From contig JAUPTZ010000006.1 of NCBI GenBank assembly GCA_030917815.1, forward strand, positions 20,403-84,402: a stretch of 64,000 nucleotides of DNA. The letters are read 5' to 3'. Made by a program: the position numbers and the translations under genes. Shown piece after piece: positions 17,018 to 64,000 of the stretch (its first letter is position 1; each line of letters opens with the position of its first letter). The notes beneath the pieces are model-generated. The model had not been told where the DNA came from, made no database searches, and saw only the letters and a list, made by a program, of their open reading frames with translations. Source of the DNA: Candidatus Babelota bacterium. GTDB taxonomy: Bacteria > Babelota > Babeliae > Babelales > JAUPTZ01.

Positions 17018-17094
<77 letters not shown>

Positions 17095-30256: not shown

Positions 30257-31889
30257 ATGAAAAAAATATACCGCTTACTCTTCCTACCAATTGCACTGAT
30301 CGGCTTTTCAAATAGCCTGATGGTCGCCGATCCGGTAGTTACCACCGATGATATTAAAGTTCCAACAAGCACTCAGTTTCAAATTAATAGCTTTAGGCCG
30401 CAAGCAGGCAAAAAAAGAGACACCTTGGTTCAAGAGAAAAGCGGCCCTCCTCGGCGCGCTCGGCATCAGCGCTGTCTGCATTGGAGGAGTCTATTATTTT
30501 TACCGCACTCAAGATGGCGCCTTAATACCATCATCAGAAGTAACCACGCCACAGCTTACCGACAAATCAGGCTCAAAAGTTGATGTACCTGCCGGTGTGC
30601 CTACACCGAACAAACCGCTTACGGTACCAACCAAAAAACCAAAAGGTACACTACCAGTCGTTGATCCCAAAGCGACAGCGGCTGAAGAAACGAAGAGAAA
30701 AGAAGCGGCGGCACAACTAGCAGCCCAAAAAGAAGCAGATCGCCTTGCCGCAATAGCAGCACAAAAAGCAAAAGACTCGGCCGATGCTGAGGAAGCTGCA
30801 CGTAAAGCAGAAGAAGATCGCAAAGCACAAGAGGCTAAAGATGCGCAAGCTGCGAAAGCGGCACACGAAGAAGCGGTCAAGCGAGCTGAGCAAAAAGTAG
30901 AAAAAGCTGTCGCAGCGCGTAACCGAAAATGGGGAAGACCGGCGCTAGAAGGAGAGGAAAAACAGAAACTCTTTGACGCCATACTCCGAGAAGAAAGTGA
31001 AACGCCAACAGAAAGATCGGCCCGCCTCGCCGATACATTAGCGCGCGCTCAAAGTAGTATCCCCGGCCTCAAGGAAAGACTTGAACGAAGGCGCTTAAAA
31101 ACACAAATGAAAGCGGCCGAAAAAACGGGGAAAAAAACACCCCGAGATTTGCATAAACCTTATGGCAAAACTAGATATACAAGCCGGGCCGTGGAAAGCC
31201 AATGGAAGAAGTTTTCAGATGAATTTGAAAGCGCTGATGCAACATTTTCATCGTATACGCCTCGCATAGTACTCACCACATCGGGAAGCAGCATCCAATC
31301 GACTCAACGCCCTTCACGACAACTTGAACGCGCAAACATACGCTTAGCTCGCGTAACAGCGGCCGCAAGCGCAAACCCAGAAGATGTAACATTGCAAGAA
31401 GAATTAGCCCAAGCAGTCACAAATAAAGCAACAAAAGAAGAGGCTTTTCTACGAGCTTCCATCACAAAGCTTGCGCAAGAAGCTCGTCAGAATGCCACTC
31501 GCAAGGCTGAGCTTGCTACGCAACGAAGAGAGCAAGCAGAGGCGGCAAGAATTCGGCATACACCAAAAATAGAACTATACGCTGCAGAGCATGCCCGCTG
31601 TGTCCCGCTACAAATGCGCGGACAAATAACTGCTCCAGCTCTTGGCAATCTTGCCAGGGCCTTGCGTGAAGAACGAGAGTGCGTTAACAAACCAGAAAAA
31701 GATGCGGCCGAAGCCCTGGAGATGGCCACGCTCGCAGAGGAAGGTGCCTCAGCGGCTGAGACGGCACTGCGCGCCCTAGAGGGGCCACTGTCGCTTGAAG
31801 AGCTCCATGCACAGTTCGCTACCGCAAAAGAAGGCCTAGCCAAAACTGAACGCATGCATCATGCTGCTTGGGATAGAACTTATCTTTGA
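30257..31889 (+). pseudogene. Copy 2 of the tandem coiled-coil gene, interrupted by a +1 frameshift in an A7 tract (30410-30416)
   Basis: ORFs 30257-30583 and 30348-31889 together reproduce the copy-1 architecture. The first ~440 nt are near-identical to copy 1. Removing one A restores ...GKKETPWFKRKAALL... Confidence 0.75.
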
Positions 31890-45075: not shown

Positions 45076-46599
45076 TTAAAACCGTAATACTACGCCACCA
45101 GAAATACGCGTATCTTTTAACGTGTTTTTACCAGAAAACACATGATCAATCGCTCCTTCAACACTGCACAATGCACTCAAGCAATAGCCAACCGAGGTAT
45201 GCACGCTGTGTGTACGAGAACCGGTATGTTTGGTTGCTATATCAAGTGCATAATGATGACTGTCTTCGAGACCGGAAATACGCTCTTGCTGATGTCCTAC
45301 AAAACGATACGCGAAGGTAACATGCATTGGCTTACCAAAACATTGTTCGATCGTATTCCCTAACTGGAATAGGCAAGAAAGCCCTTTGTGCACCGTCACT
45401 TTGTGCAACGTCGAAGCAAAGCCAGGAATCATTGTTTCGGCATAGTTGCTGAACGAGCTACCACCAAGCATTACAACATCGCTAAATGGAATAGTGTGCG
45501 GTGATACTTCGGCAAGACGACTACCCATATTGCTTACTCCGTCATGACTTAACGAGTAGGGAAGACGCATACCAACTTGTGACGGTATGCTGTAACCCAA
45601 GCCAACAATTACACAAGGATTTGCATACGAACTACGATGCCACTCAAATCGAGCATGAGTTTTAATTTGATGAGCGCCATGTCCTAATGTTGGTTCTGCA
45701 AGTGCAACATTATGCGGCCCTTTACTAGTATTCAATACAAGCTCAGCACCAACTTGACAATGATCAACATAAGGCATCGCATAATCATACATACACTTAA
45801 TGCTGAAATCACCCAAGCCTACCGTTTCCTGTTTTTCAGCAAACGTAATGCCAGAATTCTCTAACGTTTGATGTAAAAAACCATCTAAATCACTGTGCAA
45901 CTCATAAAATCCAGGAACTTCAGGCGTACGCATATCGGCCATAGCACCTCTGCGCATTACATTGAGAGAGGCCGCATCAACCAACGCCGCGCGATTAGCG
46001 GGGCTCATTTTTTCAACCGACAAATGCGTTTCTTTGCGCACCAATGGGAGATCGATCGACATTTGCAACCGCTTATCCAGGAATGTACGAGAATAAGATC
46101 CCAAAAATTCTTGGCGTGATTCATGCCCCTTGAAGGCAATTTTTTGATCGGCAAGCAAACAAAGGTAATGATTATTATTATTCGGCAATGGTTGTTGATC
46201 AGCAATCTTGCTTACTATTTTTGCCTCATCACGCGCAAGAAGCTTACTTGCTACAAAAGCATCCTGCACGGTGAAAACACCCGATCCAAAGGCAACGGCC
46301 GAGGGATCCGATTTTCGACCACGCGTATCAAATCCATGTGATGCCCATGCATGGCTGAACCGTAACGACACTTCTTCTGCTGCCTTCGGACGCGCAACAG
46401 ACTCCGCCGGCTTCTCTGCCAAAATGCGCCGAAAATCGGTAAGCTTACTATGAAGCCATGGCAGGCGCTTCTCAATAAAACTAGCCGATACTTCAAATGG
46501 CCCCGCCGACTCAGTAGGCACTATGAAATTTTCCGAAGCCTGCGCCATCGGCATTACTACTACACTTAGAGCCAAAAGATGGCGCATTAAACGGTTCAT
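45076..46599 (-). CDS. Outer-membrane beta-barrel protein (507 aa), a paralog of 60090-61643
   Basis: AGGAGA SD, signal peptide MNRLMRHLLALSVVVMPMAQA, alternating-hydrophobic strands, and C-terminal ...GGVVLRF (terminal Phe, the OMP signature). Confidence 0.8.
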   Translation of the reverse strand: MNRLMRHLLALSVVVMPMAQASENFIVPTESAGPFEVSASFIEKRLPWLHSKLTDFRRILAEKPAESVARPKAAEEVSLRFSHAWASHGFDTRGRKSDPSAVAFGSGVFTVQDAFVASKLLARDEAKIVSKIADQQPLPNNNNHYLCLLADQKIAFKGHESRQEFLGSYSRTFLDKRLQMSIDLPLVRKETHLSVEKMSPANRAALVDAASLNVMRRGAMADMRTPEVPGFYELHSDLDGFLHQTLENSGITFAEKQETVGLGDFSIKCMYDYAMPYVDHCQVGAELVLNTSKGPHNVALAEPTLGHGAHQIKTHARFEWHRSSYANPCVIVGLGYSIPSQVGMRLPYSLSHDGVSNMGSRLAEVSPHTIPFSDVVMLGGSSFSNYAETMIPGFASTLHKVTVHKGLSCLFQLGNTIEQCFGKPMHVTFAYRFVGHQQERISGLEDSHHYALDIATKHTGSRTHSVHTSVGYCLSALCSVEGAIDHVFSGKNTLKDTRISGGVVLRF

Positions 46600-46662
46600 A
46601 CTCTTACTCTCCTGTTTATCTTTATTATTAGATAGTTCATTTTCTTAAAAGAAGACCGCGCA

Positions 46663-47847
46663 TCACACCCCTGACGCATCCTGCACATTACACACGATGT
46701 CGTACATTTCCAATATGCCATCCTCAATGAGCAACTTACTATTTCTTCCATAAGTATAGCCATCACCAAAATTTATCTCTGAAGCACCACTACCGGTCCC
46801 ATAGAGCTTAGAGCTACCTTTTGATATCAAGGTCACTCCAATAAGTGATAACGAAGGAACCTGGACGTAAAATTGAGCATCATCAAGAATGATTTGCGAG
46901 GCCTCACCAATACCATCACCAATCAACTCATTCGCATCATCATCACCAGATCCGTAGATAAAGGCAACCTGATTAAAGACCATCGATGAATTAGCACTCA
47001 ATCGTATGCTAGACGGCGAAGAATAGATAAGCGAACCGACTCCGGTAAATGTTGCCGTATCACCAATGAGCAAATGTCCTTGCGAAATGGTCATATCGCC
47101 ATCCAATTTAAACAGACAATTATTGAAACAAACCGCGCCGTCGTCATCCATTTGCACCGGCTCGCCATTAATCCTCCAAAAGGTAATATCCTCTATTTGA
47201 AGAACCGATTCATTGGCAATGACAAAGGCACCCTCATCATAAAAATCAATAAGTTTTGAATTTCCACGAACATAAGATGGGTTCTCAAGACTTCCCACAA
47301 AGGTGATTGGGTAAGAAAAACTCCATACATCTTGATTAAGCGAGAGGACACCGCTAGAAATCGTAAGCGACGCTCCATCCCCTAAAGAAATTGCTCCCGG
47401 CTGAAACCCGGCAAGCTCAAGGTTTGACAGTACCACCGCAGTATTATCTCCAATAACCAGTTGAACACCACCGCCGTCGGAGAACGTAATTTTTTGCCCT
47501 GAGCCAGTTAACGTAATCGTGCCGCCACCATCTCCAAGCGCGGCAATCGTCATAAGACTCACCGGAGAAAGATTTATGTCTTTATAAATGGTAGTATTGT
47601 GATTGAACGTTCGAATATGTCCGCCATGATCAATAAACGTACCACACGAGTAATCAAACGAAGCTCCACTATCAACGGTTAGCGTACCTTCATTGACAAT
47701 GGTACCGGTTACCGTCAAGTCACTGGCTATTACAAAGGTCGATCCTTCTTCGACGATGATGCTTGAATTTTTATCACCAAACAAAATGCCAGCTTCTGCA
47801 CCAAAACCAGTTAATAAACAGAAAACACCCAAAATCGGATAACGCAT
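46663..47847 (-). CDS. Secreted passenger-like repeat protein, subfamily 2 (394 aa), no barrel domain
   Basis: The ATG at 47847 gives the signal peptide MRYPILGVFCLLTGFGAEA. Gly/Thr/Ser/Asn-rich repeats with alternating hydrophobics. ITFSDGGGVQLVIGDNTAVVLSNLELAGF resembles a segment of the 61643-64000 protein. Confidence 0.8.
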   Translation of the reverse strand: MRYPILGVFCLLTGFGAEAGILFGDKNSSIIVEEGSTFVIASDLTVTGTIVNEGTLTVDSGASFDYSCGTFIDHGGHIRTFNHNTTIYKDINLSPVSLMTIAALGDGGGTITLTGSGQKITFSDGGGVQLVIGDNTAVVLSNLELAGFQPGAISLGDGASLTISSGVLSLNQDVWSFSYPITFVGSLENPSYVRGNSKLIDFYDEGAFVIANESVLQIEDITFWRINGEPVQMDDDGAVCFNNCLFKLDGDMTISQGHLLIGDTATFTGVGSLIYSSPSSIRLSANSSMVFNQVAFIYGSGDDDANELIGDGIGEASQIILDDAQFYVQVPSLSLIGVTLISKGSSKLYGTGSGASEINFGDGYTYGRNSKLLIEDGILEMYDIVCNVQDASGV

Positions 47848-47935
47848 AGCTAGCCCTTTACACAACAGACACTCTTCACAGATGTTTGTTGTGTAGAACA
47901 ATATACCTTAGCCGGTCAATAGATAAGTATCGATA

Positions 47936-50506
47936 TTATCCAAGCGCAATATATGCAAGGCTCCCTGGACCAGCAGCATCATCGGTATCAATCACCAGTT
48001 GTGCCGACGGCCTCAAAACAATAGTAAGCATTCCGCTTGAATCAGGAGTATTGTTAAAGCAAATACCAGCACTGCCAGGGCGAATAAAAGAACGATGATC
48101 GATGCGTAGAATGCCGGTTGAAAGCAGTAATGGATCATCTTCTCTATCTGACCGCCTAAACACTGCACCAATAAGCTCCAAGATTGCTGTTGCATCGTTC
48201 AATATAAAGTCGCTCGTACCAGCATGATTGTGATCGTAAATAATTCCATCGCGCAGCTGCAAACTCGACAAGCCCATAATAGACAGACCTTCGACCGAAG
48301 TATTATTAAATACTGCATCGGCAACACCGGAAATTATACAATTACCTTCAAACCTAAGTTGCCCACTCGCCCAATTAAAATCATTGCTCAATACAAGCTC
48401 TACATTATGCAAAACCAAGACATTCCCCGTGGATGCCGAAAGCTTACTTCCCGATAAATTAAGCAAGCGCCCATCGGAAATATGTAATTCGCTACCACTA
48501 CCAGAATCAAGTACAATAGCGGCATTCACATGACTAAAATCAATATCGTGTCCTTGTAAGTTTATATACATTCTTTCATTGCTAGCACCCGAACCGAATG
48601 TCATCTCTTTTCCTAGCTTTTGCGAAACTTCATCGGTCCAATTTTTGCGAAGCACTACCGTGGTATTGTCACCAAAATGGAGCCAATCTTCACCCCCCTC
48701 AAAACCCCACCATGGATCAAGCAGGCCATCAAGAATGATATTTTTCAGCGTTACTTGGGTAGCATCATATACGTACAGAAGCGGATCACCGAAGAGACTA
48801 TAGCCACGATCACCAAAAATAATCGACCTACCACAACCATCCAAAGTATAAGCAGCAGCCCCTCCAAACGTTATGCGAGATCCATTCGTTACTTCGGGAA
48901 CTTCCGGATATAAATAGATGTTTTTAGAGAGTCCAGCACCTTCAAGATACGTATAGTCGCTCACATACTTAAGCGCATCAATATCATCGCTCAACGTATC
49001 AATATCGTTAAAAATGGTTGTAATATCACTATCCATAGCATTGATAGCCCCTTGCATCACCGCAAGCTGTGCACCAGAAGTAAGTTGCGCCACACGACCA
49101 TCGGAGTGGGCAAGATCAAAGCCAGTTATATTGGTATCATCGCTGGACCCCAACGTATCGTACCAAACCGTTGCCGCGCTAGAAATAATACTTGAGCTTT
49201 TCATAATAAGATGGTGTGAACCGGTTATTACCGTCAATGGCCCCGTAACATTTATCCCGCCACCCGCGACACTCCAGTCAACGGTTTCACTCAATGTCAC
49301 GTTCATATTCGACCAGGTCATACTCCCACCAGAAAAGTCAAACATGTCAGCAGATAAAGAGGTAAGGAATAGATTAGACAACGCTAATACACCAGTAGCG
49401 ATGTCAAAAACACCTGTGCTTAAATTAAGTCTATAACCATTACCGTTCACGATGCTATCCCCGTTAAACGTCCATGTCCCTGCAATAGTCAAATTATTTT
49501 TCAGCTCAATAGTAGTATTGGAGAAAATTGCATTACCTCCAAAAACATCAATCACATAGCCGCTGTCTTCACGTGCGGTCATTGAGCCATTAATAAAAAT
49601 GCTGTTGTACCCATCCTCAGATACCAGATAGCAATTAACAAAACGCCACATACCTTGCCCAACAAAAGTTCCTGATGAAATATTAGTTAAGACACAATTT
49701 ATAAAAGTCACCGTGCACTCACCACCATCAATAGAAGACCCGCCCCCAAAGGTAAATTGATTGCCATTACCATTCACATACCCATCATCGCCAAAAGTAA
49801 TACAAGCATCGCTTGAAAGCGTTACCGGACCGGTAAGAAAAAGATTTGGCTCATACCATATAAGATTGTTGTCAAAATACACATTGTTCCACTGATTACC
49901 ACCTATGTAGAGCGAATACCCAGCGAAGTCAACGATATCAGCACCACCATTACCATGGCTTGTTACAAAATATTCCGGCGCGAGATGAAGATCGGCACCT
50001 AAAACAAGCTTTGCTGCATAACCGTCGCCAGAGGCCAGAGCAATAGATGCTGCGAGGTCACCAGAAATATTAACGAGCACCGCCTTATCATTACCTATCT
50101 GAATTGAGTTATTAAAAGTAGACCCAAGGCCCTGCAATACACTTGGATGGTCAAGCGTGCCATTAACAATAATTTGCTCTGCAACCGGCAACCCACTGAG
50201 CTCCATCATTTGATCATCACCGAGCGTAATAGAACTCCCTATGGTCACCGATCCGGTAACAACCATAGATTCTTGCTCATCAGCAGTATCAACGACAATT
50301 CGTGTTTCACTACAAACCGGCGTCCCACTTAATGTGCCGCCAGTTTTTTTAATAAGGCCACCAGTAAGCTGGGCCGAGTTGAGATTCAGTATGCCATCCA
50401 ATAGCACTACGCCCGACTCATTCCCTAGCTCAATGTCGGCCTGCAACGCATGCGACATACACATAAGAGCAAAAATTGATATCATCAGCATTGCATGCTT
50501 TTTCAT
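47936..50506 (-). CDS. Secreted Pmp/autotransporter-passenger-like repeat protein, subfamily 1 (856 aa), no barrel domain
   Basis: Signal peptide MKKHAMLMISIFALMCMSHALQA. Repeats such as VFGGNAIFSNTTIELKNNLTIAG (GGxI/FxxN-like). It carries the shared C-terminal module. Confidence 0.85.
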   Translation of the reverse strand: MKKHAMLMISIFALMCMSHALQADIELGNESGVVLLDGILNLNSAQLTGGLIKKTGGTLSGTPVCSETRIVVDTADEQESMVVTGSVTIGSSITLGDDQMMELSGLPVAEQIIVNGTLDHPSVLQGLGSTFNNSIQIGNDKAVLVNISGDLAASIALASGDGYAAKLVLGADLHLAPEYFVTSHGNGGADIVDFAGYSLYIGGNQWNNVYFDNNLIWYEPNLFLTGPVTLSSDACITFGDDGYVNGNGNQFTFGGGSSIDGGECTVTFINCVLTNISSGTFVGQGMWRFVNCYLVSEDGYNSIFINGSMTAREDSGYVIDVFGGNAIFSNTTIELKNNLTIAGTWTFNGDSIVNGNGYRLNLSTGVFDIATGVLALSNLFLTSLSADMFDFSGGSMTWSNMNVTLSETVDWSVAGGGINVTGPLTVITGSHHLIMKSSSIISSAATVWYDTLGSSDDTNITGFDLAHSDGRVAQLTSGAQLAVMQGAINAMDSDITTIFNDIDTLSDDIDALKYVSDYTYLEGAGLSKNIYLYPEVPEVTNGSRITFGGAAAYTLDGCGRSIIFGDRGYSLFGDPLLYVYDATQVTLKNIILDGLLDPWWGFEGGEDWLHFGDNTTVVLRKNWTDEVSQKLGKEMTFGSGASNERMYINLQGHDIDFSHVNAAIVLDSGSGSELHISDGRLLNLSGSKLSASTGNVLVLHNVELVLSNDFNWASGQLRFEGNCIISGVADAVFNNTSVEGLSIMGLSSLQLRDGIIYDHNHAGTSDFILNDATAILELIGAVFRRSDREDDPLLLSTGILRIDHRSFIRPGSAGICFNNTPDSSGMLTIVLRPSAQLVIDTDDAAGPGSLAYIALG

Positions 50507-50602
50507 AAAACTTCCCCTTGGCCTAAACTGCTTGAGTTCTGTGTATAGCCAATCAGAAAAAACAAATACAACGCTTACCAAAAAAGCTTAGAAAATCTTT
50601 TT

Positions 50603-53245
50603 CTAGGCAGGATTTTGATACGTGACCGTACCAGCACTTGCTACACCATCGCTACCAACAAAAAGAAGGCCGCCAGGCCGCACAATTAAATCAAGAGTCG
50701 TTGATGTTTCAGGAAACCCAGTAGCATAGCCGATTATCATTCCATGATCGCCAGGAACTAAGTATGATTTTTGATCCACAATAACCGTACCATTCGTAAG
50801 AATTAAGGATGGCGCATCAATGGCACTTTGATTAGATCTCCTAAATTTGGCTCCCATAAGTTCCAAAATCGAAGTCTTGTCTGTCATAGCAAAATTATCA
50901 ATACCGTCATTATCATGGCTATACACGATACCATCATGAAGTGTTAACGTCGCCATTGAAGCTATGGTAAACGTATTGGTCGAACAATTTGAAAACACTG
51001 TTCCTGCTGGTCCAGAAATTGAACATGTTCCTTCTATGACTAAACCGCTGAAGTATGCCGAATCTTCTGAGTCAACTGAAGACCACGTAAAATCATCAGA
51101 CAATTCAAGATCAACCGAGTCCAAAATAATAGTACAGTTATAACCGGCCTTAAGCTTTCTGCCCGATAGATTAATGAGGCGACCATTCTTAATACGCAGC
51201 TCGCTACTCAAGCTGTTATCAAGCACAATAAGTGCATTTTCATGAGCCATATCAATAGTGCATCCATTAAGATCTAAAGTCGCTTTGCAGCCACCAGCTC
51301 CTACCGCGCTACCGAAATGAAGCGTCTTGTTCAATGCATCAATACCAATCCAATCATTATGCAAGCGCACCAGAGTATCTGAACCAAAATAGAGCTGACC
51401 TGCCACCGTATAGAAATTATTTTTTATTCCATCAAGGACAATGCGCCGTAACTCAACAGTTGTATCTAAAGCTATCGTCATCAAATTAGGATAGATGCCG
51501 GCCTGTCCACCCCCTGAAAAAAATATGGTACGTCCATACCCATCAAAGCTAAAGCTATCACCACCATTAAACGTAAGCGAAGCGCCAGCAATTCCATCAT
51601 CTACTATTTCAGGATAAAGATAGATGTTCCGCTCTAAACCACACGGTGTCGAGGCAGAAGTAATGGTATAATTACTTACGCTAACCACATCTTCAAGATT
51701 GGAAATACTCGTATTCATAGAAGAAAGAGTGCTGTCTATCACAGAAAGTTCGCCACTAATCCCCCCCAGATCTCCAAAAATCGTACCTATGTAACCATTT
51801 ATCACTGCAACATCTTCACCAGACGCAACTCGCGTAACGCGTCCCAAACCGCCAAAGCCGGCTACGTTAGTAGCATCATTCGTACCCAGCGTGTCATACC
51901 ACAACGTAATATTGGAAAGAATCTCCGACCCAGCATTAACCGTAAAAGAATAGTCACCGGTTATAATAGTTGTTGAGCCAGCAATTTGCACCACCTGCCC
52001 ACTCAAAGACCAATTAATACTTTCAACAAGCACCATCGTAACACCGGAAAGAACAAGTACGCTCGCAACATCGGCCACCGAGCTAGAGCTAACATGATCC
52101 CATAGCAAATCACAGAGCGCTAACGTACCGGTCGCGGCAATGGTAAAACTCCCAGCGAGCATATCGAGACGAAACGTTTGACCATTAATCGTTATAACAT
52201 CATCGCCATCGGTCGTGCCCAGAGACCACTCACCCTCAAGACCCAAATTCTCATTAAGCGTCATCGTACCGCGACGAAAAACAACATCACCACCAAAGAG
52301 ATCGAACGACCCAGCAAGAGTACCGGTAATGGTAACCGAACCGCCAGCTACACCATTGAGTATACAGTTATCAAATATCCAATTCCCCACCCCTGCAAAA
52401 CTTACACCTGAAACATTCTCAAAAATCAAATCGGTCATGTGCACGTCATAGCCTCCATTATCTATGATCGCACCCTCTCCAAAATAAAATCGATTACCTT
52501 GCCCAGAGAACTTGGCATTGCCGCTCAAGGTAATAACATCATCAGCGGCTAGCATTACCGGACCAGTGATCTGTACATTTGCATCGGTAAACGTCATAGG
52601 CCCATATATATAAAGCAATGAGTCCTCCGTCCCACCAATAGCCATGCAATGCCCATTAAACGCCACGGTATTTATAGCGTTAGCTGGAGTATCGGCCTGA
52701 ACGCAACACCCGGTGTTAAAAATCAAGTCTGAATCAAGAAGCAGAGAGGCCGACTCGGCAGATAAGGTTTCAAACCAAATCTCTGAATTCAACGTACCGG
52801 AAAGATTAACTCTCAATGCACACAGGGAATCAATATTAATCTCAGCAATAGTTCCACCAGAACCATATAATATGCTCGGTGTACCAGTATTAGCACCAGA
52901 AACCTTGAGACTTTCATTAATAGTATCGCCATTTATACAAAGTTTTTGATTGTCCCCGAGCTGAATATGGGAGCTAAAATCTACTATGCCGTCGGTAACC
53001 ATCGATGTACGACTTATTAGAGCCGTTTGAATGCACATATTGGTACAGTGAGGAGTGCCTGCCAATACCCCTCCAGCATTGATAAGGACGCCGTCGGCCA
53101 AAACCGCAGACCCAAGATCGAGTCTGGCCGCATTACCCACGGTAAATCCGCCACCACCGCCACCAAAGTTGATACGGCTCTGAACCGTAGCAACACTCAC
53201 TACACTTACTAGCAAAGACAAAATCAACACTATAGAGCTTTTCAT
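50603..53245 (-). CDS. Secreted Pmp/passenger-like repeat protein, subfamily 1 (880 aa)
   Basis: Signal peptide MKSSIVLILSLLVSVVSVATVQS. It has the same architecture and C-terminal module as its neighbours. Confidence 0.85.
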   Translation of the reverse strand: MKSSIVLILSLLVSVVSVATVQSRINFGGGGGGFTVGNAARLDLGSAVLADGVLINAGGVLAGTPHCTNMCIQTALISRTSMVTDGIVDFSSHIQLGDNQKLCINGDTINESLKVSGANTGTPSILYGSGGTIAEINIDSLCALRVNLSGTLNSEIWFETLSAESASLLLDSDLIFNTGCCVQADTPANAINTVAFNGHCMAIGGTEDSLLYIYGPMTFTDANVQITGPVMLAADDVITLSGNAKFSGQGNRFYFGEGAIIDNGGYDVHMTDLIFENVSGVSFAGVGNWIFDNCILNGVAGGSVTITGTLAGSFDLFGGDVVFRRGTMTLNENLGLEGEWSLGTTDGDDVITINGQTFRLDMLAGSFTIAATGTLALCDLLWDHVSSSSVADVASVLVLSGVTMVLVESINWSLSGQVVQIAGSTTIITGDYSFTVNAGSEILSNITLWYDTLGTNDATNVAGFGGLGRVTRVASGEDVAVINGYIGTIFGDLGGISGELSVIDSTLSSMNTSISNLEDVVSVSNYTITSASTPCGLERNIYLYPEIVDDGIAGASLTFNGGDSFSFDGYGRTIFFSGGGQAGIYPNLMTIALDTTVELRRIVLDGIKNNFYTVAGQLYFGSDTLVRLHNDWIGIDALNKTLHFGSAVGAGGCKATLDLNGCTIDMAHENALIVLDNSLSSELRIKNGRLINLSGRKLKAGYNCTIILDSVDLELSDDFTWSSVDSEDSAYFSGLVIEGTCSISGPAGTVFSNCSTNTFTIASMATLTLHDGIVYSHDNDGIDNFAMTDKTSILELMGAKFRRSNQSAIDAPSLILTNGTVIVDQKSYLVPGDHGMIIGYATGFPETSTTLDLIVRPGGLLFVGSDGVASAGTVTYQNPA

Positions 53246-53396
53246 GGACCCCCCCAGCACTATTAAACTTCAATACTGAGTATATACCGTACCACCAAAA
53301 GCCAACTCAACGCTTAGGAAAAACGAGCGAACAAACCTTTCACTAGCGGTTTTTTCCACTCCAAGCTTGCTAATGCCTCGCTGATAGCGCCATTAC

Positions 53397-55874: not shown

Positions 55875-55968
55875 AGTACGCTCCTTGCACACATTGCCAA
55901 ACAGTTTCAATTGAGGCGCTAGTGATAGACAAACATAAGCCGCAAAGGCAACATTCTATAAAATATTA

Positions 55969-55994
55969 GTGGCCACCGATTTCTCGATGGCCAC
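55969..55994 (-). terminator. Hairpin downstream of the 56022-58862 gene
   Basis: gtggccaccga-tttc-tcgatggccac (one mismatch). It is followed on the minus strand by taatatttta. Confidence 0.45.
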
Positions 55995-56021
55995 CGCAAA
56001 AACGAAAGAGTGGTGCTGTTA

Positions 56022-58862
56022 TTAAGCAAGATCCACGTGAGTCAATGAACCAGCAGTCGCACCGGTACCGGTACCAACGTTAATGGTAGCACCAGGACGA
56101 ATCTCAATATTGAACGCAGCCGAATCTGTACCAAAGTCTATGCCCTTAGAACCAGGTTGAATGTATGATTTATGGTCAACAATCATAGTGCCATTCGTAA
56201 GCGCCAATGGATCGCCAGAGCCTAAATCGTGCCGCCTGAACGTTGCACCAATAAGCTCAATAACCGATGTTGCATCGGTCGTGACAAAATTGATAGTGCC
56301 CGCATTATTATGGTCATAAACAACACCATCCATTAAAGTGAGACGCGCATTACTTTGGATTACAAAATCATCGGCCGATGTATTATCAAACACCTTGCCT
56401 GATACTCCTGAGATTACACAGTGCCCTTGAATAACTAACGACGCATCAGCAAAAGTAAAATCATCATTCAAACCAAGCTGAACATTCTCAAGATATAACG
56501 TAGAACCGGCAGGAATAATTATTTTAGGACCAGTGGTGCCATCATCCGCAATATTAATAAGCCGACCATTCTTGATGTACAACGAAGAATCACCACCAAG
56601 ATCAGCGAGCAATTGGATAAGCGCCGACGAGCTAGACATATCAATAGTCTTTCCATTCAGATCTAGAACCATCACTTCACCAGTAGCTGACGCAGAACTA
56701 CCAAAGATCATTTCAGTCGCTAATGCATCTGACCCGGTCCAATCTTCATGCAAACGTACCGTTGTGTTATTACCAAAACACAAGCCATTCGCATCAACAA
56801 CGTTTAGATGAGCTGGCTTCACTCCTTCAAACACAATATTTGAGGTATTTACACCAGTGTCTGCCGTAACGGTGAATACAACCTGCGTGTCCAAATCAGC
56901 AGTAGTATACGGAAACATCAACGAACGCCCATGCCCATTATAGGCAATAGTGCTACCGTCAAATGTTATGGTACGACCAGCAACACCATCATCGGCAGGG
57001 AACAGATATTCGGTACGATCTAAATCGGCGTCGTCTGTAAGCGTAATGTTGCCAGTATTTGGTGAGTCAACAAACATCACACGACCGGTACCGGTGAAAC
57101 CAACAAGATTTGCACTATAAGGAGCGCTCAATGTATCGTAATAAGCCGTTACCCCATTCAACACACTCGTACCGGCCGAATTTGGCACGGTTAACGTATA
57201 TGATCCAGTAACTACATACAATGAACCATCAACTACCAGACAGGTATTGTAAGCACCCCATGCAACATTTGCTGAGCCAAGAATAATCGTCACATTTGAA
57301 AGATTTACCGTACCGGTAGTAACATCGGCAAGAGAAGCAGTTACAACGTTATCAAGGACTACATTACGCAGTGTCAACGTCTTACCGTTAGCAACGCTCA
57401 ACGTACCAGCCGCAAGATCTAAATGATGTCCGTTACCATCAATAACCGAGTTGTCGGAGAACGACCAAGTCGATGATCCACTAATAGTTACATCGCTTAA
57501 TAATTCAAGATTTACCCCATTAGACCAGGTCACACTTTCTGCGAAAATGTTTCCGGCCGATACGGTATTAGCAGGCAATGTTAAGGTTGCAGCACCTTCA
57601 CTAGTTCCTTGACTGGTACCACGAACATAAATCGCACCAACGTGAGTACTTGAATACCATTGTACGTCAGACAAAGAAATTGCGCGACCAGTTGCTGTCG
57701 TTGCAATTGACCCTGATGCCATTGCAGCAACAGTCATATTTTCAAGACTCAATGTTGACGAACTACCAATTGAAAGTACTCCGCTAAACACATTTCCACG
57801 ACCATTAATCGTTACGCCGCTTGAGTCTGCAATTGTCCACGTGCCACCAAGAGTAACATCTTTGTTCAATGCAAGACGTGAAGTACCAAATGTAGCTGCA
57901 CCACCAAAAATATCAACGGCCGAGCTTACCGGTACAATAGAACCATCAACGGTAATCGAATAAGCACTGGTTTCAAATGTCGCACCAACACAGGTCCACG
58001 TACCAGAACCGGCAAAACTTGCCGATGTAATAGTACCTAAAACAACATTATTCAGCGTAACACCATAGGTAGCATTATTAAGAATAGAACCGCTATTAAA
58101 ACTCAAGCGGTTTCCGTTACCTTCGATCATTGCAGCAGAACCCAACGTAACAGTCTTGCTACTTGCAATGCTTACCGGACCGGTCAATAAGACATCGGCA
58201 GCGGTCCAGGTTTGATTCGTTGAGATGCTTGTGGCACCAGATGCCGCATCACCACCCATTGCAACACGACGTCCATTAAAATTCAAGGTGTCGGTCCCTG
58301 TTTCTGCCGAAATCATACGAATGCCAGCGGCAAAAGTCAGATCTTGCTCAAGCTTAACCGTTGCCGTACTTGCAGCACCCGCATTCAAGCTCAAATTTTT
58401 ATTAAGTGGACCGGTCCAACGCAAATTAAGTTGTTTTGCATCGCTTACCGAAATATCGGCTGCAAACGATCCAAATCCTTCTATAATGCTTGGTGTCGCC
58501 GTAGCACCAGCAACCGTTATTGTTTCGGCTACAGTACCACCAGCTACGAGCAACTTATCGTTATTACCCAACGATATCGCTGAACCAATCGTCACCGTAC
58601 CATCGGCAGTCATCCTTTTGAGTGCGGTACCATCCTTAGCTTCAAACGTAATACCGGTACAATCCATTGATGTCCCCGTAATTGAACCACCAACATCACG
58701 GAGCGATCCGTCAACTAATGTCGCGCCACCAAGGGCCAACGTTCCAGCGCTTACTACAAAACCAGATTCTCGGCTGCCAAAATTAACATTCGTCCATGCA
58801 GTACTCGCTATACTGCACGACAAAATTAATATTGCAGCGATATTTATCGCTATTTTTCTCAT
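56022..58862 (-). CDS. Secreted Pmp/passenger-like repeat protein, subfamily 1 (946 aa)
   Basis: AGGAG SD, signal peptide MRKIAINIAAILILSCSIASTAWT. It contains one extra internal repeat module relative to the 825-aa paralog. Confidence 0.88.
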   Translation of the reverse strand: MRKIAINIAAILILSCSIASTAWTNVNFGSRESGFVVSAGTLALGGATLVDGSLRDVGGSITGTSMDCTGITFEAKDGTALKRMTADGTVTIGSAISLGNNDKLLVAGGTVAETITVAGATATPSIIEGFGSFAADISVSDAKQLNLRWTGPLNKNLSLNAGAASTATVKLEQDLTFAAGIRMISAETGTDTLNFNGRRVAMGGDAASGATSISTNQTWTAADVLLTGPVSIASSKTVTLGSAAMIEGNGNRLSFNSGSILNNATYGVTLNNVVLGTITSASFAGSGTWTCVGATFETSAYSITVDGSIVPVSSAVDIFGGAATFGTSRLALNKDVTLGGTWTIADSSGVTINGRGNVFSGVLSIGSSSTLSLENMTVAAMASGSIATTATGRAISLSDVQWYSSTHVGAIYVRGTSQGTSEGAATLTLPANTVSAGNIFAESVTWSNGVNLELLSDVTISGSSTWSFSDNSVIDGNGHHLDLAAGTLSVANGKTLTLRNVVLDNVVTASLADVTTGTVNLSNVTIILGSANVAWGAYNTCLVVDGSLYVVTGSYTLTVPNSAGTSVLNGVTAYYDTLSAPYSANLVGFTGTGRVMFVDSPNTGNITLTDDADLDRTEYLFPADDGVAGRTITFDGSTIAYNGHGRSLMFPYTTADLDTQVVFTVTADTGVNTSNIVFEGVKPAHLNVVDANGLCFGNNTTVRLHEDWTGSDALATEMIFGSSASATGEVMVLDLNGKTIDMSSSSALIQLLADLGGDSSLYIKNGRLINIADDGTTGPKIIIPAGSTLYLENVQLGLNDDFTFADASLVIQGHCVISGVSGKVFDNTSADDFVIQSNARLTLMDGVVYDHNNAGTINFVTTDATSVIELIGATFRRHDLGSGDPLALTNGTMIVDHKSYIQPGSKGIDFGTDSAAFNIEIRPGATINVGTGTGATAGSLTHVDLA

Positions 58863-58982
58863 ATCACTCTCTCCTTGTTTGAAGATATTCAGGGGACCCT
58901 AAAGGGGGTAGCCAGTGATAAAAGAGGATCGACTAACAATGCAACAGTTTATAAAACAAAATAAAAAAGATTGGTGCACTAC

Positions 58983-60002
58983 TCAATTCGCATTAGCATA
59001 TGCAACACTGCCACCATTTACATCAAACGTCGCACCCGGAAGAAATATAATATACAGTCGATCAGTATCATCGCCCAACGTAATACCCCCACTCTCACCA
59101 GATCCTTTGAGATAGCTGTGATGATCGGTAATGAGCGTACCAGTCTGCAAAACCAACGTACGTGCCGCCGATTCGAGCGTGCTACCGGTCATGCGCAGCC
59201 GAGAGCTTCGATTGGTAAACACAATATTGTCGGTCGATGCATAATTGTGCTTTAACGTAAAGCCATGATCAAGGTGCAGACAACTGTTTCCATTAATGGT
59301 AAGTGATCCGGCCGAGGTATAGGTTAACACACGACCTGGTGTACCAGTAAATGAGCAATTACCTGAAATGGTCAATGCCCCAGCGCTAAAAGTAGTATCA
59401 GATCCCCATATAACACGAACATTTTCAAGCACCAATGTGCTGTCGCTGCTCAATGAAAATGGCGCTACACTCGTAGTTAAAGAGAGTGTCATGTTCTTGA
59501 GTGTTAAGGTTTTTTCTGACGCAATCACAACGCTATTACTTCCACCAATAATGAGCGAATGTTGTTCCCCATTAATCATCAAATCATCCGCTATCGTTAA
59601 GGTTTTACTCGTCCCAGAGTAGGTAAGATCATTGGATAGAAAGATTGCTTTTCCAGCACCATAAATTGAACCGGTATTGCTTAATGTTGCATCGCTTCCC
59701 AACAACAAATCATGTACCAATACTATTGAACCACTGTTCATATCAATGGGACCGTTAATGGGTGGCACAAGATCAACGGTAAAGGTATGCCCTGCCGTAT
59801 CAATACCGGCCTGATACCAACCATATCCTTCAGAGGTAGTATCATCGGTTAATGTATACAGGCTATTCGTAACATATACCGATGAACGATAATCATTAAC
59901 CGTTGCAAAAACTGCTGGGCATCCCAAAAGAAAAACAATAATGCTTACACACAATTTACGAGAAAAAACTTCACACATACTCACCACGTTTCTACACTCC
60001 AT
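58983..60002 (-). CDS. Short subfamily-1 passenger-like protein (339 aa; the start may be the ATG at 59978)
   Basis: Hydrophobic N-terminus ...KLCVSIIVFLLGCPAVFA. It retains the shared C-terminal module (TDHHSYLKGSGESGGITLG...PGATFDVNGG). Confidence 0.8.
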   Translation of the reverse strand: MECRNVVSMCEVFSRKLCVSIIVFLLGCPAVFATVNDYRSSVYVTNSLYTLTDDTTSEGYGWYQAGIDTAGHTFTVDLVPPINGPIDMNSGSIVLVHDLLLGSDATLSNTGSIYGAGKAIFLSNDLTYSGTSKTLTIADDLMINGEQHSLIIGGSNSVVIASEKTLTLKNMTLSLTTSVAPFSLSSDSTLVLENVRVIWGSDTTFSAGALTISGNCSFTGTPGRVLTYTSAGSLTINGNSCLHLDHGFTLKHNYASTDNIVFTNRSSRLRMTGSTLESAARTLVLQTGTLITDHHSYLKGSGESGGITLGDDTDRLYIIFLPGATFDVNGGSVAYANAN

Positions 60003-60089
60003 GCATTACGCTGAATGAAACTAAGATCTTCAACAATCGGGCAGTTTATCCCACCAAATCACTGCACAAGTCAAGAAAGTAATCAGATT

Positions 60090-61643
60090 CTACCAAGAGC
60101 CGCCAATGGCAAATCTTGCAACAATTTCAATCGGCATTGATCGACCAGTAATAACCGTTTCAATTCCAGTACGAACAAGCACATGGGGGTTCGGCTCGTA
60201 GACAAAAGAAAATCCAACATTGTGCTGCACACGATACGGATCAGATACCAACGCATTGGTATACCATGATGACGGAGAGAGCCCTTGTCGTAACTCATCT
60301 GAGCCACGCATATGAAAATGATAAAATAAATCAAGCTGCATCAACGGCGATATAAATGGAGTCACCACACTGCCAACACGAAGATCAAGAGCAAACCCGG
60401 GGCGAATCCAAGCCTCTGTCGTTTGCGCTGCAAAATCGGCTATCGTTGTTTCCGGTGTAAATACATTAATCGGCGAAGCAAAGGTAACCTCTTGTCCAAA
60501 CACTTCGGTTGATGGAAGCGAAGTTACCGATGTAGCAGTCACCATACGAGGTACACGACAATTAATCGATGTAGGGAAATATGTTTGACATGATACCATC
60601 ATGTGTGGCACCCCAAGCACTGTCTTCTTACCAACAAATCCGGTACTTAATCGTCCACTCAAACACCCATTACTCGACGGAAGCAGCGGATAGAAATAGT
60701 TGTTATCAATTGTTTTTTGTCCCGGAACAATAATTTCTGCGCTTATCGTCCAGCGGTCTAAGCGCCATGGATATAAATTAAGTGTAGTGAAAAACGAGAC
60801 ATCACCCATTGAGGCATGTGATAATTTTTCGCGGTACGCCATATTTTTTTGCTCAATAATATCAACCATCATTGCAACAACTGAAATGCCATATAAATCA
60901 CGAAATAGATTATTACGAGTCGTTCCATCATCGAGCGTTTCACGAATAGAATCTCGCTCGGCTTTACTTAATTCAGGTACAATATGCAAAGAACGAAATT
61001 GCTGACGAAGCGGCACACGCACACCAAATTGAAAAGTATTTTTTGCAATACCTAAAGTGTACGCGAAAGCACATTCATGAGTTTCAATCGATGCCTGAAC
61101 AGGAATACGTGTCTTTGAAAGGTCTTGTAAGAATTCATACCCAACACCGGTTGTTGTCGTGTCAGCGGCAATCGCCAACTTGCTCGCCACGATAATATCT
61201 TGTAGTAACGGTTCTTTACCAAACCGCACTACCGAGCTATCGACTATGGCGCCGGTACTATCAAAGCCGCTCGTCACATACGAAAATGCATAATCAACAC
61301 TTGCACTATGCGCACCATAAAATCTATCGGTCGCTGTTGACCATGTTGGTACTACATATGTATGTGCGTACCGACCACGAATGGTATCACGTGCCAGACG
61401 ATCTTTTTCACGCTGCGCCCATGCACTTGCGAGCGCGTCACGAGTCAAAACACGGCTTTCCTGTTGCGCCGATGCAATTGCATCAAGAGTACGTGCTTTT
61501 TCAAACTTCTTTTCAAGATCGGCTCGAATTGAAGTACGTGTTGCACTCCGCTCTTTCACTCGTTCTGCGCGATCTTTTCCCGCAAATACCAATCCCGATG
61601 CTACCGTAAGTAAGCCAATAGCAAAAATAATTTTTTTCATCAT
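60090..61643 (-). CDS. Outer-membrane beta-barrel protein (517 aa) with an N-terminal charged helical extension, a paralog of 45076-46599
   Basis: Signal peptide MMKKIIFAIGLLTVASGLVFA and C-terminal ...FAIGGSW (terminal aromatic). The segments SGFDSTG..VRFGKEPLLQDIIVASKLA and GDVSF align with the 507-aa protein. Its start overlaps the upstream stop (TAATG). Confidence 0.8.
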   Translation of the reverse strand: MMKKIIFAIGLLTVASGLVFAGKDRAERVKERSATRTSIRADLEKKFEKARTLDAIASAQQESRVLTRDALASAWAQREKDRLARDTIRGRYAHTYVVPTWSTATDRFYGAHSASVDYAFSYVTSGFDSTGAIVDSSVVRFGKEPLLQDIIVASKLAIAADTTTTGVGYEFLQDLSKTRIPVQASIETHECAFAYTLGIAKNTFQFGVRVPLRQQFRSLHIVPELSKAERDSIRETLDDGTTRNNLFRDLYGISVVAMMVDIIEQKNMAYREKLSHASMGDVSFFTTLNLYPWRLDRWTISAEIIVPGQKTIDNNYFYPLLPSSNGCLSGRLSTGFVGKKTVLGVPHMMVSCQTYFPTSINCRVPRMVTATSVTSLPSTEVFGQEVTFASPINVFTPETTIADFAAQTTEAWIRPGFALDLRVGSVVTPFISPLMQLDLFYHFHMRGSDELRQGLSPSSWYTNALVSDPYRVQHNVGFSFVYEPNPHVLVRTGIETVITGRSMPIEIVARFAIGGSW

Positions 61644-64000
61644 TATTGTAACACTCCATCTGCGTTATACGAGAACCGACGGCCAGTTAGGGCATTATAC
61701 CCTGTTACAACACCTGCCTCAGTGTCTCCGGTTATGATTTGATTTGCATTTAACGTCACCAACACACCATTTTTAGTGCGTAACACCTTTTGATCATTCG
61801 CGTCAAAGAACACGGTCGATGCAATCAGGTTTTCATTGGCTTGCAATAACAATCGCACCAGCTCAATTGAAGTTAATCCGGCCTCAGAAAATAAATTTTC
61901 TTGCAGCTTTCCACAAAAGCTAGAGCCAACAACACCGACTAAACCGTTGCCACTCAACCGTGCACCATCAAGCAGCAAAGTAATACCATCACCATACGTA
62001 TTATCTGCCACGTTAAATAAGCCGTCTCCGGCAACATACAACTCACCGCCATTGCTAAAATCTATGGTATCTATCATCAATTGATCGGCTACGCCATGAT
62101 AAGCATTACACTCACAAACACCAGCCTGCGTAATTATAAGCCGGCCACCCTGTGAAAAATCGAGTGAGGCCGTGCACCCGGCAAATGAGAGATACGATGT
62201 CTCATCACCAATATCAAGTACTTCACCAACCCGTACCATTCCACCATTTTTTGCTCGGAGCACTACGGTATCGGACGAGGTGGCACCGTAACGAATTTCA
62301 CTGCCACGCTCAACGATCACCTGGCCACCATCTTGGCATTGCATCACGCCGTTGCCGCAGAACTCAATCGCCTGCCCTTCATTCAACAATAATTGCATCC
62401 CCTCGCTAATAAGAAAAGTACTTGTGTTGCCGACGATACGATATCCGTCAGGCAAAATAATTGAGCCAAATCCTTGGAACAGGAGGACCGAGTTAAGCCC
62501 AAATGAAATAATACTATCGGCTCCAAACGTAATAGTAACCGGTGTTGGAGAGTTACTCTGAATACAGAGCACCGCATTATCCCCAAACATAAGATTACCA
62601 TTAATAGTAAAGTCGCTCGTAATGGCGATTTTATTAGGCTTTTGCAGTGTACCGCCAACGATGTTAATAAAATCGGTATCTTTAAGCGTCGTTGGTGTTT
62701 CAAGTGCCTGCTCAACCGTCACCCCATCATAGAGCGTAAGATTCAGACTACGACTGTCCGATATCGCTAAATTGTTATACACCTTTTGGTAGATATCTTG
62801 GAGAGTGATATTACCGGCAAGCAAGGGCAGCGAAATAGCTGTTGCATAATGCACAACCGGTCGTGCCGCCTCATTGGGTAAATAAAGCCCTCTGGTAAGC
62901 AAGGGCCGTGAGTGCATTTTATACGCCGGTGTTGGATAGCGGCGCCCAAAGCGACTGCGCAACATTGCATCAAGCAACTCGTCAGATAAGATGATTGCGC
63001 CGGTATTCAACTCACTAAATAACTGTATGCCCGGATTTAACATGGCTCGCGCGCTGGTTTGTAGAATCGAATTTTGCACAATCGTGACCAAATTCCCGGC
63101 AAGAATACCATTATTCCCGATAACGAACGAATCAACACAATGATTGGTAACGCAAACCGACGGAAAATCAAACGAACAGTAGGCTGTACCAGTCGTCGAT
63201 GAAAGATCAAGTGTGCCATCCCAAAAATGAATATAGGGCGCGCCGTAGAGCGTTGTTGGCAACACAAAAGAGAAAGATAAGCCGCTAGCCATGGTATCAT
63301 CAAAGCTGATTAACCCGTCAAAGGTGTTTTGGTAAGCCCACAACAGTATACGATTATTCAACCCCTGAATCACAATATTGTGACTCACTATCGACTCGGT
63401 CGTCACGTTCAACGTGCCATCCCCACCAAGAGCAATATCACCCACAATGGTAGTACCATCAACATCGGCCGAACCCCACACAATATGGCGCAATCCACCC
63501 AGTGCAACACCACGTAGTACAAGCGTATTACTTTGTAAATCGAGATGGGTCAGATACGTATATGGTGCATGATCATTTGTTGGCGCAGAGGAGAATGTCC
63601 ACGTACGCTTTGGTCCACTACTTTTCATCTCAAACGTTTGACCGGTTCCGACTAAAACAATCTTCCCTACGCTCCATAGAACGTCTTCCGCTAGGGTGAA
63701 AATGACGTTTTCACCAATTTCAAGAACCGAATTGGTTCCCAGGGAAAAAGTAGAACTAGTCACTCCATCAAGCTCTATATTGCTGATGCGGACTGTTTTT
63801 CCATCAGCAATGGTAAATTGCGGCGTTCCCGGGTTGGCAAACTGAATCTTCGATCCGGTTCCATCTACAACGGTATGATCAGTAAAATCAATGCTATCGC
63901 TGGGCGACAACACGGCACTTTCATCCAACGTTGAAGCCGAGCCACTATAGCCGCCGGCTACCAGCACTTGACTCACCTCAGCAACCACGCCACCATTCAC
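61643..64000 (-). CDS. Large passenger-like repeat protein, subfamily 2, 5' end outside the window (>785 aa), no barrel domain
   Basis: The frame is open to the window edge. Gly/Thr/Ser/Asn/Val-rich repeats. The TAA stop shares its last A with the ATG of the barrel gene. Confidence 0.85.
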   Translation of the reverse strand: MNGGVVAEVSQVLVAGGYSGSASTLDESAVLSPSDSIDFTDHTVVDGTGSKIQFANPGTPQFTIADGKTVRISNIELDGVTSSTFSLGTNSVLEIGENVIFTLAEDVLWSVGKIVLVGTGQTFEMKSSGPKRTWTFSSAPTNDHAPYTYLTHLDLQSNTLVLRGVALGGLRHIVWGSADVDGTTIVGDIALGGDGTLNVTTESIVSHNIVIQGLNNRILLWAYQNTFDGLISFDDTMASGLSFSFVLPTTLYGAPYIHFWDGTLDLSSTTGTAYCSFDFPSVCVTNHCVDSFVIGNNGILAGNLVTIVQNSILQTSARAMLNPGIQLFSELNTGAIILSDELLDAMLRSRFGRRYPTPAYKMHSRPLLTRGLYLPNEAARPVVHYATAISLPLLAGNITLQDIYQKVYNNLAISDSRSLNLTLYDGVTVEQALETPTTLKDTDFINIVGGTLQKPNKIAITSDFTINGNLMFGDNAVLCIQSNSPTPVTITFGADSIISFGLNSVLLFQGFGSIILPDGYRIVGNTSTFLISEGMQLLLNEGQAIEFCGNGVMQCQDGGQVIVERGSEIRYGATSSDTVVLRAKNGGMVRVGEVLDIGDETSYLSFAGCTASLDFSQGGRLIITQAGVCECNAYHGVADQLMIDTIDFSNGGELYVAGDGLFNVADNTYGDGITLLLDGARLSGNGLVGVVGSSFCGKLQENLFSEAGLTSIELVRLLLQANENLIASTVFFDANDQKVLRTKNGVLVTLNANQIITGDTEAGVVTGYNALTGRRFSYNADGVLQ

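Follow-up and report, generated by a model that had tools for sequence, protein, structure and literature searches.

We analysed a stretch of 64,000 nucleotides from a Candidatus Babelota bacterium (GCA_030917815.1, contig JAUPTZ010000006.1, positions 20,403 to 84,402; hereafter the window, with positions counted from its first letter), and in particular an array of genes at 45076-64000 that may encode an outer-membrane export or display module. The array consists of nine open reading frames (ORFs) on the minus strand, all co-directional and separated by short intergenic gaps (Table 1), which are transcribed in the order S2b, B2, S1e, S1d, S1c, S1b, S1a, S2a, B1 and are followed downstream of B1 by UvrA and MutS. 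Two of the products, B1 and B2, are homologous outer-membrane barrels of ~510 amino acids (aa), and the other seven are signal-peptide proteins without a barrel of their own. This is the layout of nine co-directional genes, seven for signal-bearing proteins and two for barrels, that the original prediction had described, and the ORFs lie where it had placed them. A plausible N-terminal signal peptide was recognised by eye in the translations of all nine proteins (at 46663, 47936, 50603, 53397 and 58983 it requires an internal Met as start), and Pfam and NCBIfam scans of all nine returned nothing above threshold.

The end of the window cuts the first gene of the array. S2b could initially be described only as longer than 785 aa; a metagenome contig that is 99.9% identical (L007) corrects its full length to 1161 aa, with a signal peptide of its own and an architecture of two beta-helix-type halves with a basic linker between them. 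Its stop codon overlaps the start ATG of B2 (TAATG) and the two genes are translationally coupled; a similarly tight junction between an S2b-type gene and a barrel gene is seen in L007, L014 and L017. B1 is preceded by a 63-nt spacer with an AGGAG box 8-9 nt before its ATG, and the S2a ORF upstream of it stays open back to 47901, the likely start being the Met at 47847. The hairpin between S1d and S1c may act as an internal terminator and so divide the array into separate transcripts; in a promoter and terminator scan, terminator-like sites were not above shuffles in the region, so that the scan says little on operon structure.

Table 1. Genes of the array and associated features, with the additional gene seen at related loci (coordinates of the respective locus).
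Feature	Coordinates	Strand	Description
B1	45076..46599	-	507-aa outer-membrane beta-barrel; signal peptide, short N-terminal helices, C-terminal ...VLRF
S2a	46663..47847	-	394-aa signal-peptide beta-helix-type protein, directly upstream of B1
S1a	47936..50506	-	subfamily-1 beta-helix protein, about 856 aa from likely start; 31-35% identity with S1b, S1c and S1d
S1b	50603..53245	-	subfamily-1 beta-helix protein, about 880 aa
S1c	53397..55874	-	subfamily-1 beta-helix protein, 825 aa; the repeat protein that was modelled
terminator-like hairpin	55968..55995	-	12-pair stem and T-rich run in the S1d-S1c gap; pattern match only
S1d	56022..58862	-	subfamily-1 beta-helix protein, 946 aa; additional internal repeat block
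S1e	58983..60002	-	339 aa; S1 C-terminal module of ~150-170 aa; directly downstream of B2
B2	60090..61643	-	517-aa barrel, B1 paralogue; ~70-aa charged helical N-terminal segment, C-terminal ...GGSW
S2b	61643..64000	-	last 785 aa of a signal-peptide protein of 1161 aa; truncated at the window end
intervening gene	L022 5169-5759; L026 2346-5759; L027 3722-4990; L028 4322-5704; L024 2-445; L025 3-794		lies in the gap between S2b-like and barrel genes

B1 and B2 are outer-membrane beta-barrels, as had been proposed for these two ~500-aa proteins. They share 20% identity over 435 aa (E 5e-11), and the features of a barrel that depends on the beta-barrel assembly machinery (BAM) are present, namely a signal peptide, modelled strands and a C-terminal aromatic residue. 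An AlphaFold2 model of B1 built from 11 sequences (mean predicted local distance difference test score, pLDDT, of 60 and predicted template modelling score, pTM, of 0.57; strands at about 75-90, loops below 50) forms a closed barrel preceded by N-terminal helices (predicted at 41-61), and DSSP assigns it 12 to 14 strands. When this model was compared with the PDB by Foldseek, FapF ranked first (E 3e-12 to 1e-8; target template modelling (TM) score 0.63-0.70, top match 0.67) and was followed by the COG4313 channel 4rl8 (Pput2725), which had the highest target TM-score (0.72-0.73). Further down came EstA, EspP and FadL at E 1e-7 to 1e-5, with the autotransporter barrels (EstA, EspP, NalP, AIDA-I, BrkA and Hbp) spanning E 1e-7 to 1e-4, NanC at E 8e-5, and BamA barrels far down the list at E about 1e-5 to 1e-4. 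The barrels might have modelled as ordinary porins, an outcome considered from the start; the B1 model is unlike a classical porin, and FapF comes ahead of FadL.

An exhaustive profile search defined a barrel family of about 350 clusters at 50% identity, with ten close homologues of B1. The family appears to be confined to the phylum, its few named relatives being Dependentiae or Babeliales metagenome-assembled genomes (MAGs). The C-terminal residue is F in 144 and W in 8 of 158 family representatives (152/158 F or W). Weak matches to Pfam Phenol_MetA_deg (PF13557), which we take to be the COG4313 family, were found in 5 of 43 family members (best E 8.8e-4); the match of P0017 reaches 16 bits against a cut-off of 22 and covers residues 245-293, aligning around modelled strands 4-5 of B1 and the PT-motif loop, and neither B1 nor B2 matches PF13557 at E<=1. 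That loop, after strand 5 (beta5-beta6 by B1 numbering), holds the strongest motif of the family, P-T-A-K...K-L-W-D-P-E-L-G-N-G-G-F, and recalls the conserved PTG motifs in the beta5-beta6 loops of FapF (PMC5557850) and COG4313 (PMC6173800), a likeness that is suggestive only, since the strand numbering rests on a moderate model. A further segment, D-x-x-V-A-S-K-L, holds the invariant residues D113, V116, A117 and S118. Profile searches of PDB sequences with three barrel alignments and the S1 alignment gave only noise or charged-coil low-complexity matches, and no FapF sequence match.

Ahead of the first strand, family members typically carry a charged (K/E/R-rich), helical N-terminal extension with a median of about 105 aa, which reaches 436 aa, and 1078 aa in one member; in B1 and B2 this segment is short, about 40-70 aa. 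Long relatives of the barrels, either read or scanned with Pfam, have no beta-helix N-terminal domain and no Pfam domain. No SLH, OmpA_C or LysM match was found by Pfam in B1, B2, ten long relatives and the 43 aligned members, and no DUF560 or TPR match in the nine array proteins and the 43 aligned members. We also considered a recently split autotransporter, which is unlikely because the long relatives, including the 1504-aa P0159, have helical or charged-repeat N-termini and not a beta-helix.

Turning to the seven repeat proteins, S1a to S1e are clear paralogues (30-56% identity), the relatedness of S1e to the others being confined to its final ~150-170 aa. The counterpart of S2a within S2b is the N-terminal half (hhalign 95.7%, E 9e-9); the alignment of S2a with the C-terminal half is weak (58%). 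The AlphaFold2 model of S1c, built from nine sequences, is all-beta with short regular strands (mean pLDDT 83.8), and with a confidence of pLDDT 84 S1c is modelled as a right-handed beta-helix. All of its top 50 Foldseek matches in the PDB are right-handed beta-helix proteins (PL6 and PL3 lyases, Ag43, TibA, Hbp and phage tailspikes), and most matches in a viral library (BFVD) are beta-helix proteins as well. None of these matches is significant (best E 0.013 and 0.002, respectively), so they give the fold class only and no specific relative. The remaining repeat proteins would share this fold class, judging by their sequence relatedness to S1c, and sub-threshold Pfam matches are to Beta_helix and Pectate_lyase_5 (S2a Beta_helix E 2e-4, below cut-off). 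The passenger-like fold that had been suspected from the repeats is thus borne out by the model for S1c, and would by relatedness hold for the others.

The repeat proteins have neither an autotransporter barrel (Pfam) nor an aromatic C-terminal residue, which agrees with what had been read from the translations. Their orthologues elsewhere are equally long and likewise barrel-less, so that the absence of a barrel is not an assembly or frameshift artefact, an explanation that barrel-bearing orthologues would have suggested. Each beta-helix protein contains 6 to 18 cysteines, and none has a lipobox Cys at the signal-peptide cleavage site in the translations. A 946-aa database protein, P0011, which is S1d-like in length and in identity to S1c, is a hypothetical protein of a Candidatus Dependentiae MAG. 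A word-index homologue search with S2b residues 300-785 (61646-63103) returned no match, though an identical protein is encoded on the Logan contig L007, and such absence of matches is therefore uninformative for low-complexity beta-helix sequence.

The genes for barrels and beta-helix proteins remain linked well beyond this genome, a conservation that the original prediction had proposed to look for. The whole array is syntenic in other Dependentiae/Babeliales genomes at about 50% identity: L004 keeps the order with B2-like, S1e-like, two S1, S2a-like and B1-like genes; in L005 and L006, UvrA comes after a series of three S1 genes, an S2a-like gene and B1; L014 has S2b (1173 aa), B2, S1e and three S1 genes; and the B2 orthologue P0021 has the same gene context as B2. 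Directly upstream of the B1 orthologue, L004, L005, L010 and L011 each have an S2a orthologue, and an S1e-like gene lies directly downstream of a B2-type barrel in L004, L014 and L033 (close downstream in L030). An S2b homologue is found directly upstream of a family barrel in L012, L014, L016, L017, L018, L019, L020, L023, L032, L033 and L034. Among these barrels are distant ones, which have coiled-coil extensions and share about 20-30% identity with B1: the upstream S2b homologue has 1237 aa in L016 and at least 908 aa in L017 (where the contig end cuts the gene and the stop lies 2 nt before the barrel start), and the 572-aa product in L012 is the equivalent of the S2b C-terminal half (E 1.5e-13). 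The paired layout that had been noted by eye, S2a with B1 and S2b with B2, is thus upheld; the "subfamily 2" that was to unite the two partners is loose, since S2a matches mainly the N-terminal half of S2b.

Metagenomes were surveyed with a barrel motif from the LGNGG-subgroup alignment, with BLAST E-values relative to a small reference set, and yielded 19 loci, 15 with upstream DNA. All 15, like every other locus that we looked at, have a beta-helix family gene at most two genes from the barrel, and no barrel was seen among the loci examined without repeat-protein genes. An S2b-like gene is directly upstream of the barrel in 7 of the 15; in 3 (4 with one weak case) one gene intervenes between the two; in 2 the contig ends just upstream of a similar intervening gene; and in 2 more, housekeeping genes lie upstream and S1-type genes directly downstream of the barrel. 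A locus search with the close B1 alignment returned three close orthologues, in MAGs labelled Candidatus Dependentiae, Candidatus Babeliales and uncultured Pseudomonadota.

Two observations at these related loci concern their origin and content. Contig CAYSBJ010000001.1 (GCA_964429275.1; L004 and L009) is titled "uncultured Pseudomonadota bacterium" and bears B2, S1e, two S1, S2a and B1 genes; the label is probably wrong, since the array is the same as in MAGs labelled Dependentiae or Babeliales. At L012 (1-8130), four tandem paralogues of ~650 aa, each with an S1-like N-terminal beta-helix module and a WD40 beta-propeller, lie upstream of the S2b-like/barrel pair, which indicates that the S1-like module is joined to other domains in other lineages.

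The product of the gene that intervenes between the S2b-like gene and the barrel at some loci (Table 1) starts with a transmembrane helix, after which come 150 to 1100 aa of charged coiled-coil repeats. Since the barrels at these loci carry their own signal peptides, the intervening gene specifies a separate protein and not a frameshifted barrel N-terminus. From sequence, the coiled coil would in some lineages be part of the barrel protein and in others a protein of its own, probably with an inner-membrane anchor, and its occurrence in both forms points to a periplasm-spanning element in the system.

We propose that the locus is an outer-membrane export or display module specific to Dependentiae, in which a FapF-like barrel acts in trans to export or anchor beta-helix proteins and which belongs to neither type Va, type Vb nor the Pmp family; we put the probability of this reading at roughly 45%. 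B1 and B2 would each form a narrow barrel with about 12 to 14 strands that belongs to the FapF/COG4313 structural class and is inserted by BAM, the C-terminal Phe/Trp serving as the signal, and the charged helical N-terminal segment of each would sit in the periplasm. The seven beta-helix proteins would pass the inner membrane by Sec and be threaded unfolded through the barrels, with stepwise folding of the beta-helix outside the cell powering export, as is thought to apply to autotransporter passengers and TpsA proteins. They make suitable cargo because S1c is confidently a beta-helix, all seven have signal peptides and none has a barrel of its own. S2b with B2 and S2a with B1 would form cognate pairs, the tandem S1 paralogues would probably be further, variable clients, and the end state would be variable, adhesin- or invasin-type surface proteins of the infectious stage. 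The data show the gene layout, the homologies, the fold of S1c, the barrel nature of B1 and B2 with their best structural matches and the conserved linkage; the periplasmic N-terminal segment, the passage through the barrel, the surface location and the role in host contact are what we infer. More tentatively, the same scheme may extend to a phylum-wide outer-membrane export system of Dependentiae, in which a FapF-like narrow barrel exports the adjacent giant beta-helix adhesin, with the periplasmic coiled coil either fused or separate and anchored in the inner membrane.

Several points weigh against this proposal. It is from gene linkage that we infer export or anchoring by the barrels, and the survey was seeded from barrels, so that linkage was counted only from barrel to beta-helix gene. 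The B1 model is only moderate (mean pLDDT 60, pTM 0.57 from 11 sequences), and the FapF/COG4313 fold does not settle function because COG4313 is a small-molecule uptake channel. The 6-18 cysteines would be unusual for unfolded passage of a narrow pore, if periplasmic disulfides form, and the Dependentiae type II system could export folded beta-helix proteins. Finally, no FapD-like C39 peptidase or other Fap component was found in Pfam and NCBIfam scans of the submitted window ORFs of at least 150 aa (those at 17402, 18837 and 21671 with Pfam only; 20103-21545 and 23645-24496 left out).

An alternative that we regard as unlikely, yet as the best of the rivals, is that the barrels are structural anchors: their charged coiled-coil stalk would link the outer membrane to peptidoglycan or the inner membrane, S2a and S2b would bind them on the surface or in the periplasm and form a coat-like layer, and the type II secretin would export the folded beta-helix proteins. 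Such a tether is to be expected in these bacteria, since ten Dependentiae genomes yielded no homologue of Lpp, Pal, OmpA or OmpM, the four known outer-membrane tethers (10.1101/2021.05.31.446380). The K/E/R-rich, helical N-terminal extensions of the family can exceed 400 aa and would be long enough, and the separate coiled coil with an N-terminal transmembrane helix, placed between the S2b-like gene and the barrel in several lineages, suggests a bridge from inner to outer membrane. The phylum has type II secretion (PMC4776705; PMC4378268), and the cysteine-rich cargo would suit export in the folded state. However, no peptidoglycan-binding domain (SLH, OmpA_C, LysM) was found in any member scanned, the N-terminal segments of B1 and B2 span only about 40-70 aa, and a tether alone would not account for a barrel that is strictly paired, and translationally coupled, with one beta-helix gene. 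Tethering and export are moreover compatible, as FapF too has a periplasmic coiled coil.

Rather improbable is a reading in which the barrels are small-molecule or oligosaccharide channels, either COG4313-like or 12-stranded and KdgM/NanC-like, and the beta-helix proteins are secreted glycan-degrading enzymes or binders for host surface polymers, both serving one pathway of uptake or degradation. Dickeya offers a parallel, its KdgM porins being co-regulated with beta-helix pectate lyases. The structural comparisons fit in part, given the TM-score of 4rl8, the weak Phenol_MetA_deg matches in relatives, the presence of NanC among the B1 matches (E 8e-5) and the PL6 alginate lyases and PL3 pectate lyases at the top of the S1c matches. 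But none of these lyases is matched significantly (best E 0.013, TM below 0.2), and the matches reflect a generic fold; no lyase or hydrolase family reached the Pfam threshold in the nine proteins; and the clients at L012 include WD40 propeller fusions, not enzymes. Nor are porins of this kind marked by a long coiled coil in the periplasm or by being translationally coupled to a protein of 1161 aa, and Dependentiae are without a matching metabolism, C. destructans encoding no complete metabolic pathway (PMC6561590). Least probable of all is a coincidental envelope island of general porins or major outer-membrane proteins that share regulation with surface proteins and no partnership, for although the barrel family is large (about 350 clusters) and apparently phylum-confined, and although the 64-kb window alone holds two barrel copies and the majority of its proteins bear signal peptides, S2b-type adjacency persists down to about 24-30% identity and through changes of neighbouring genes, the S2b and B2 coding regions overlap, and the pair was apparently duplicated as a unit (S2a-B1, S2b-B2).

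Dependentiae are widespread obligate parasites of protists and almost unstudied, and a conserved, unannotated module of this kind is a candidate for host-contact protein display and for outer-membrane organisation in the phylum. In the Dependentiae literature searched, we found no description of the barrel or S2b-type families. About 44% of the proteins of C. destructans, a cultured member, carry signal sequences (PMC6561590), and the type II system is the sole secretion system that was detected in Babela (PMC4378268). If the barrels export beta-helix proteins, at least two new families (the barrel and its S2b-type partner) would be defined for annotation. The FapF principle would then extend from amyloid subunits to adhesin-type beta-helices, with a mechanistic link to type V secretion, and the module would be a trans-acting counterpart of type V and the first non-type-II secretion route in the phylum.

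Elsewhere in the window, the PLA2_B lysophospholipase catalytic domain (E 1e-14) of a signal-peptide protein at 24625-26442 (+) makes it a candidate secreted effector on sequence grounds; we regard the PLA2_B domain as mainly eukaryotic. Two adjacent proteins at 28347-30245 and 30348-31889 (+), neither with a Pfam or NCBIfam match, are 89% identical over 140 aa and thus point to a recent partial duplication. At 35609-39517 (-), a signal-peptide protein of 1302 aa without any family match adjoins MutS and has the same neighbours in L005 (54% identity) and L016 (35%). A tRNA cluster, Arg(tct), Pro(tgg) and His(gtg), lies at 17018-17311 (-), and an S41 tail-specific, PDZ-containing periplasmic protease at 12897-14339 (+) precedes an amino-acid ABC transporter operon (14386-16538).

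Compared with known systems, the array resembles type Va secretion and the chlamydial Pmp proteins in the beta-helix passenger fold, the similar size class of the barrel and the Pmp-like expansion of tandem paralogues. It differs in that, here as in all orthologues, passenger and barrel are encoded by two genes, and no Autotransporter (PF03797) or Chlam_PMP match was found by Pfam in the nine proteins and the long barrel relatives. The likeness to Pmp repeats that had been suggested turned out to be a matter of composition only: GGA[ILV] is absent (0 occurrences) from each of the seven repeat proteins, and FxxN occurs 1-7 times vs 0.7-3.6 in shuffles, which is not a clear enrichment. With type Vb (two-partner secretion, TPS) the array shares a two-gene logic, in which a beta-helix exoprotein adjoins a dedicated barrel and secretion is presumably folding-driven. 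Here, however, the exoprotein gene precedes the barrel gene, the barrel is much smaller than the 16-stranded TpsB, and the Pfam and NCBIfam scans of the nine proteins gave no TPS domain (Haemagg_act), Omp85 or POTRA match even at E<=1, consistent with the lack of TPS motif and POTRA N-terminus noted at the outset. The idea of a split, type-V-like system therefore stands in its anatomy and linkage, and holds only by analogy, since there is neither a Pmp motif nor a type V family signature and the precedent is FapF.

The OmpM/SlpA tethers of Negativicutes and Deinococcus-Thermus likewise combine a signal peptide, a long helical stalk and a C-terminal barrel, but here no SLH or other peptidoglycan-binding domain was detected, the barrel is smaller and without sequence similarity to theirs, and it is strictly paired with a beta-helix gene. 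As in Slam/type XI systems, a dedicated barrel gene adjoins the surface proteins it would serve; unlike there, no DUF560 or TPR match was found and the clients are not lipoproteins. The COG4313 channels come closest in target TM-score, in being the only Pfam family that recurs among the barrel relatives and in the P-T-x loop motif, whereas all PF13557 matches are below the gathering threshold. COG4313 proteins are small-molecule uptake channels (PMC6173800). They have about 270-300 aa and no coiled coil, take up hydrophobic small molecules and show no linkage with genes for beta-helix proteins.

The FapF trimer is made up of plugged barrels with 12 strands each and has an N-terminal coiled coil in the periplasm; the proteins that it exports are unfolded and have genes of their own, and the barrel has been called autotransporter-like (PMC5557850). 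FapF is the best structural match of the B1 model, has an N-terminal helical or coiled-coil domain before the barrel, as is predicted for the barrels here, and is encoded at the end of its client operon (PMC5557850); it is a stand-alone barrel that acts in trans on separate, Sec-exported beta-rich proteins, as we propose for B1 and B2. On the other side, there is no detectable sequence similarity, B1 and B2 exceed FapF by about 100 aa and have large insertions in their loops, scans of the submitted window ORFs gave no homologue of FapA-E (including the C39 peptidase FapD), the sole peptidase match in the window being the S41/PDZ protease, which is not adjacent to the array, and the clients are right-handed beta-helix proteins of 340-1160 aa vs the amyloid repeat subunits of Fap. 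Since defining features that we tested for are absent, the system falls outside the Fap, type Va/Pmp, type Vb, Slam and OmpM families. The arrangement, which had been contrasted with the classical type V systems, has a precedent in FapF: a narrow barrel with a periplasmic coiled coil that works in trans is already known, and it is the protein families, at the level of sequence, and the beta-helix clients that are new. Altogether, the system would in its working come closest to the FapF arm of the Fap system and, by analogy, to type V secretion.

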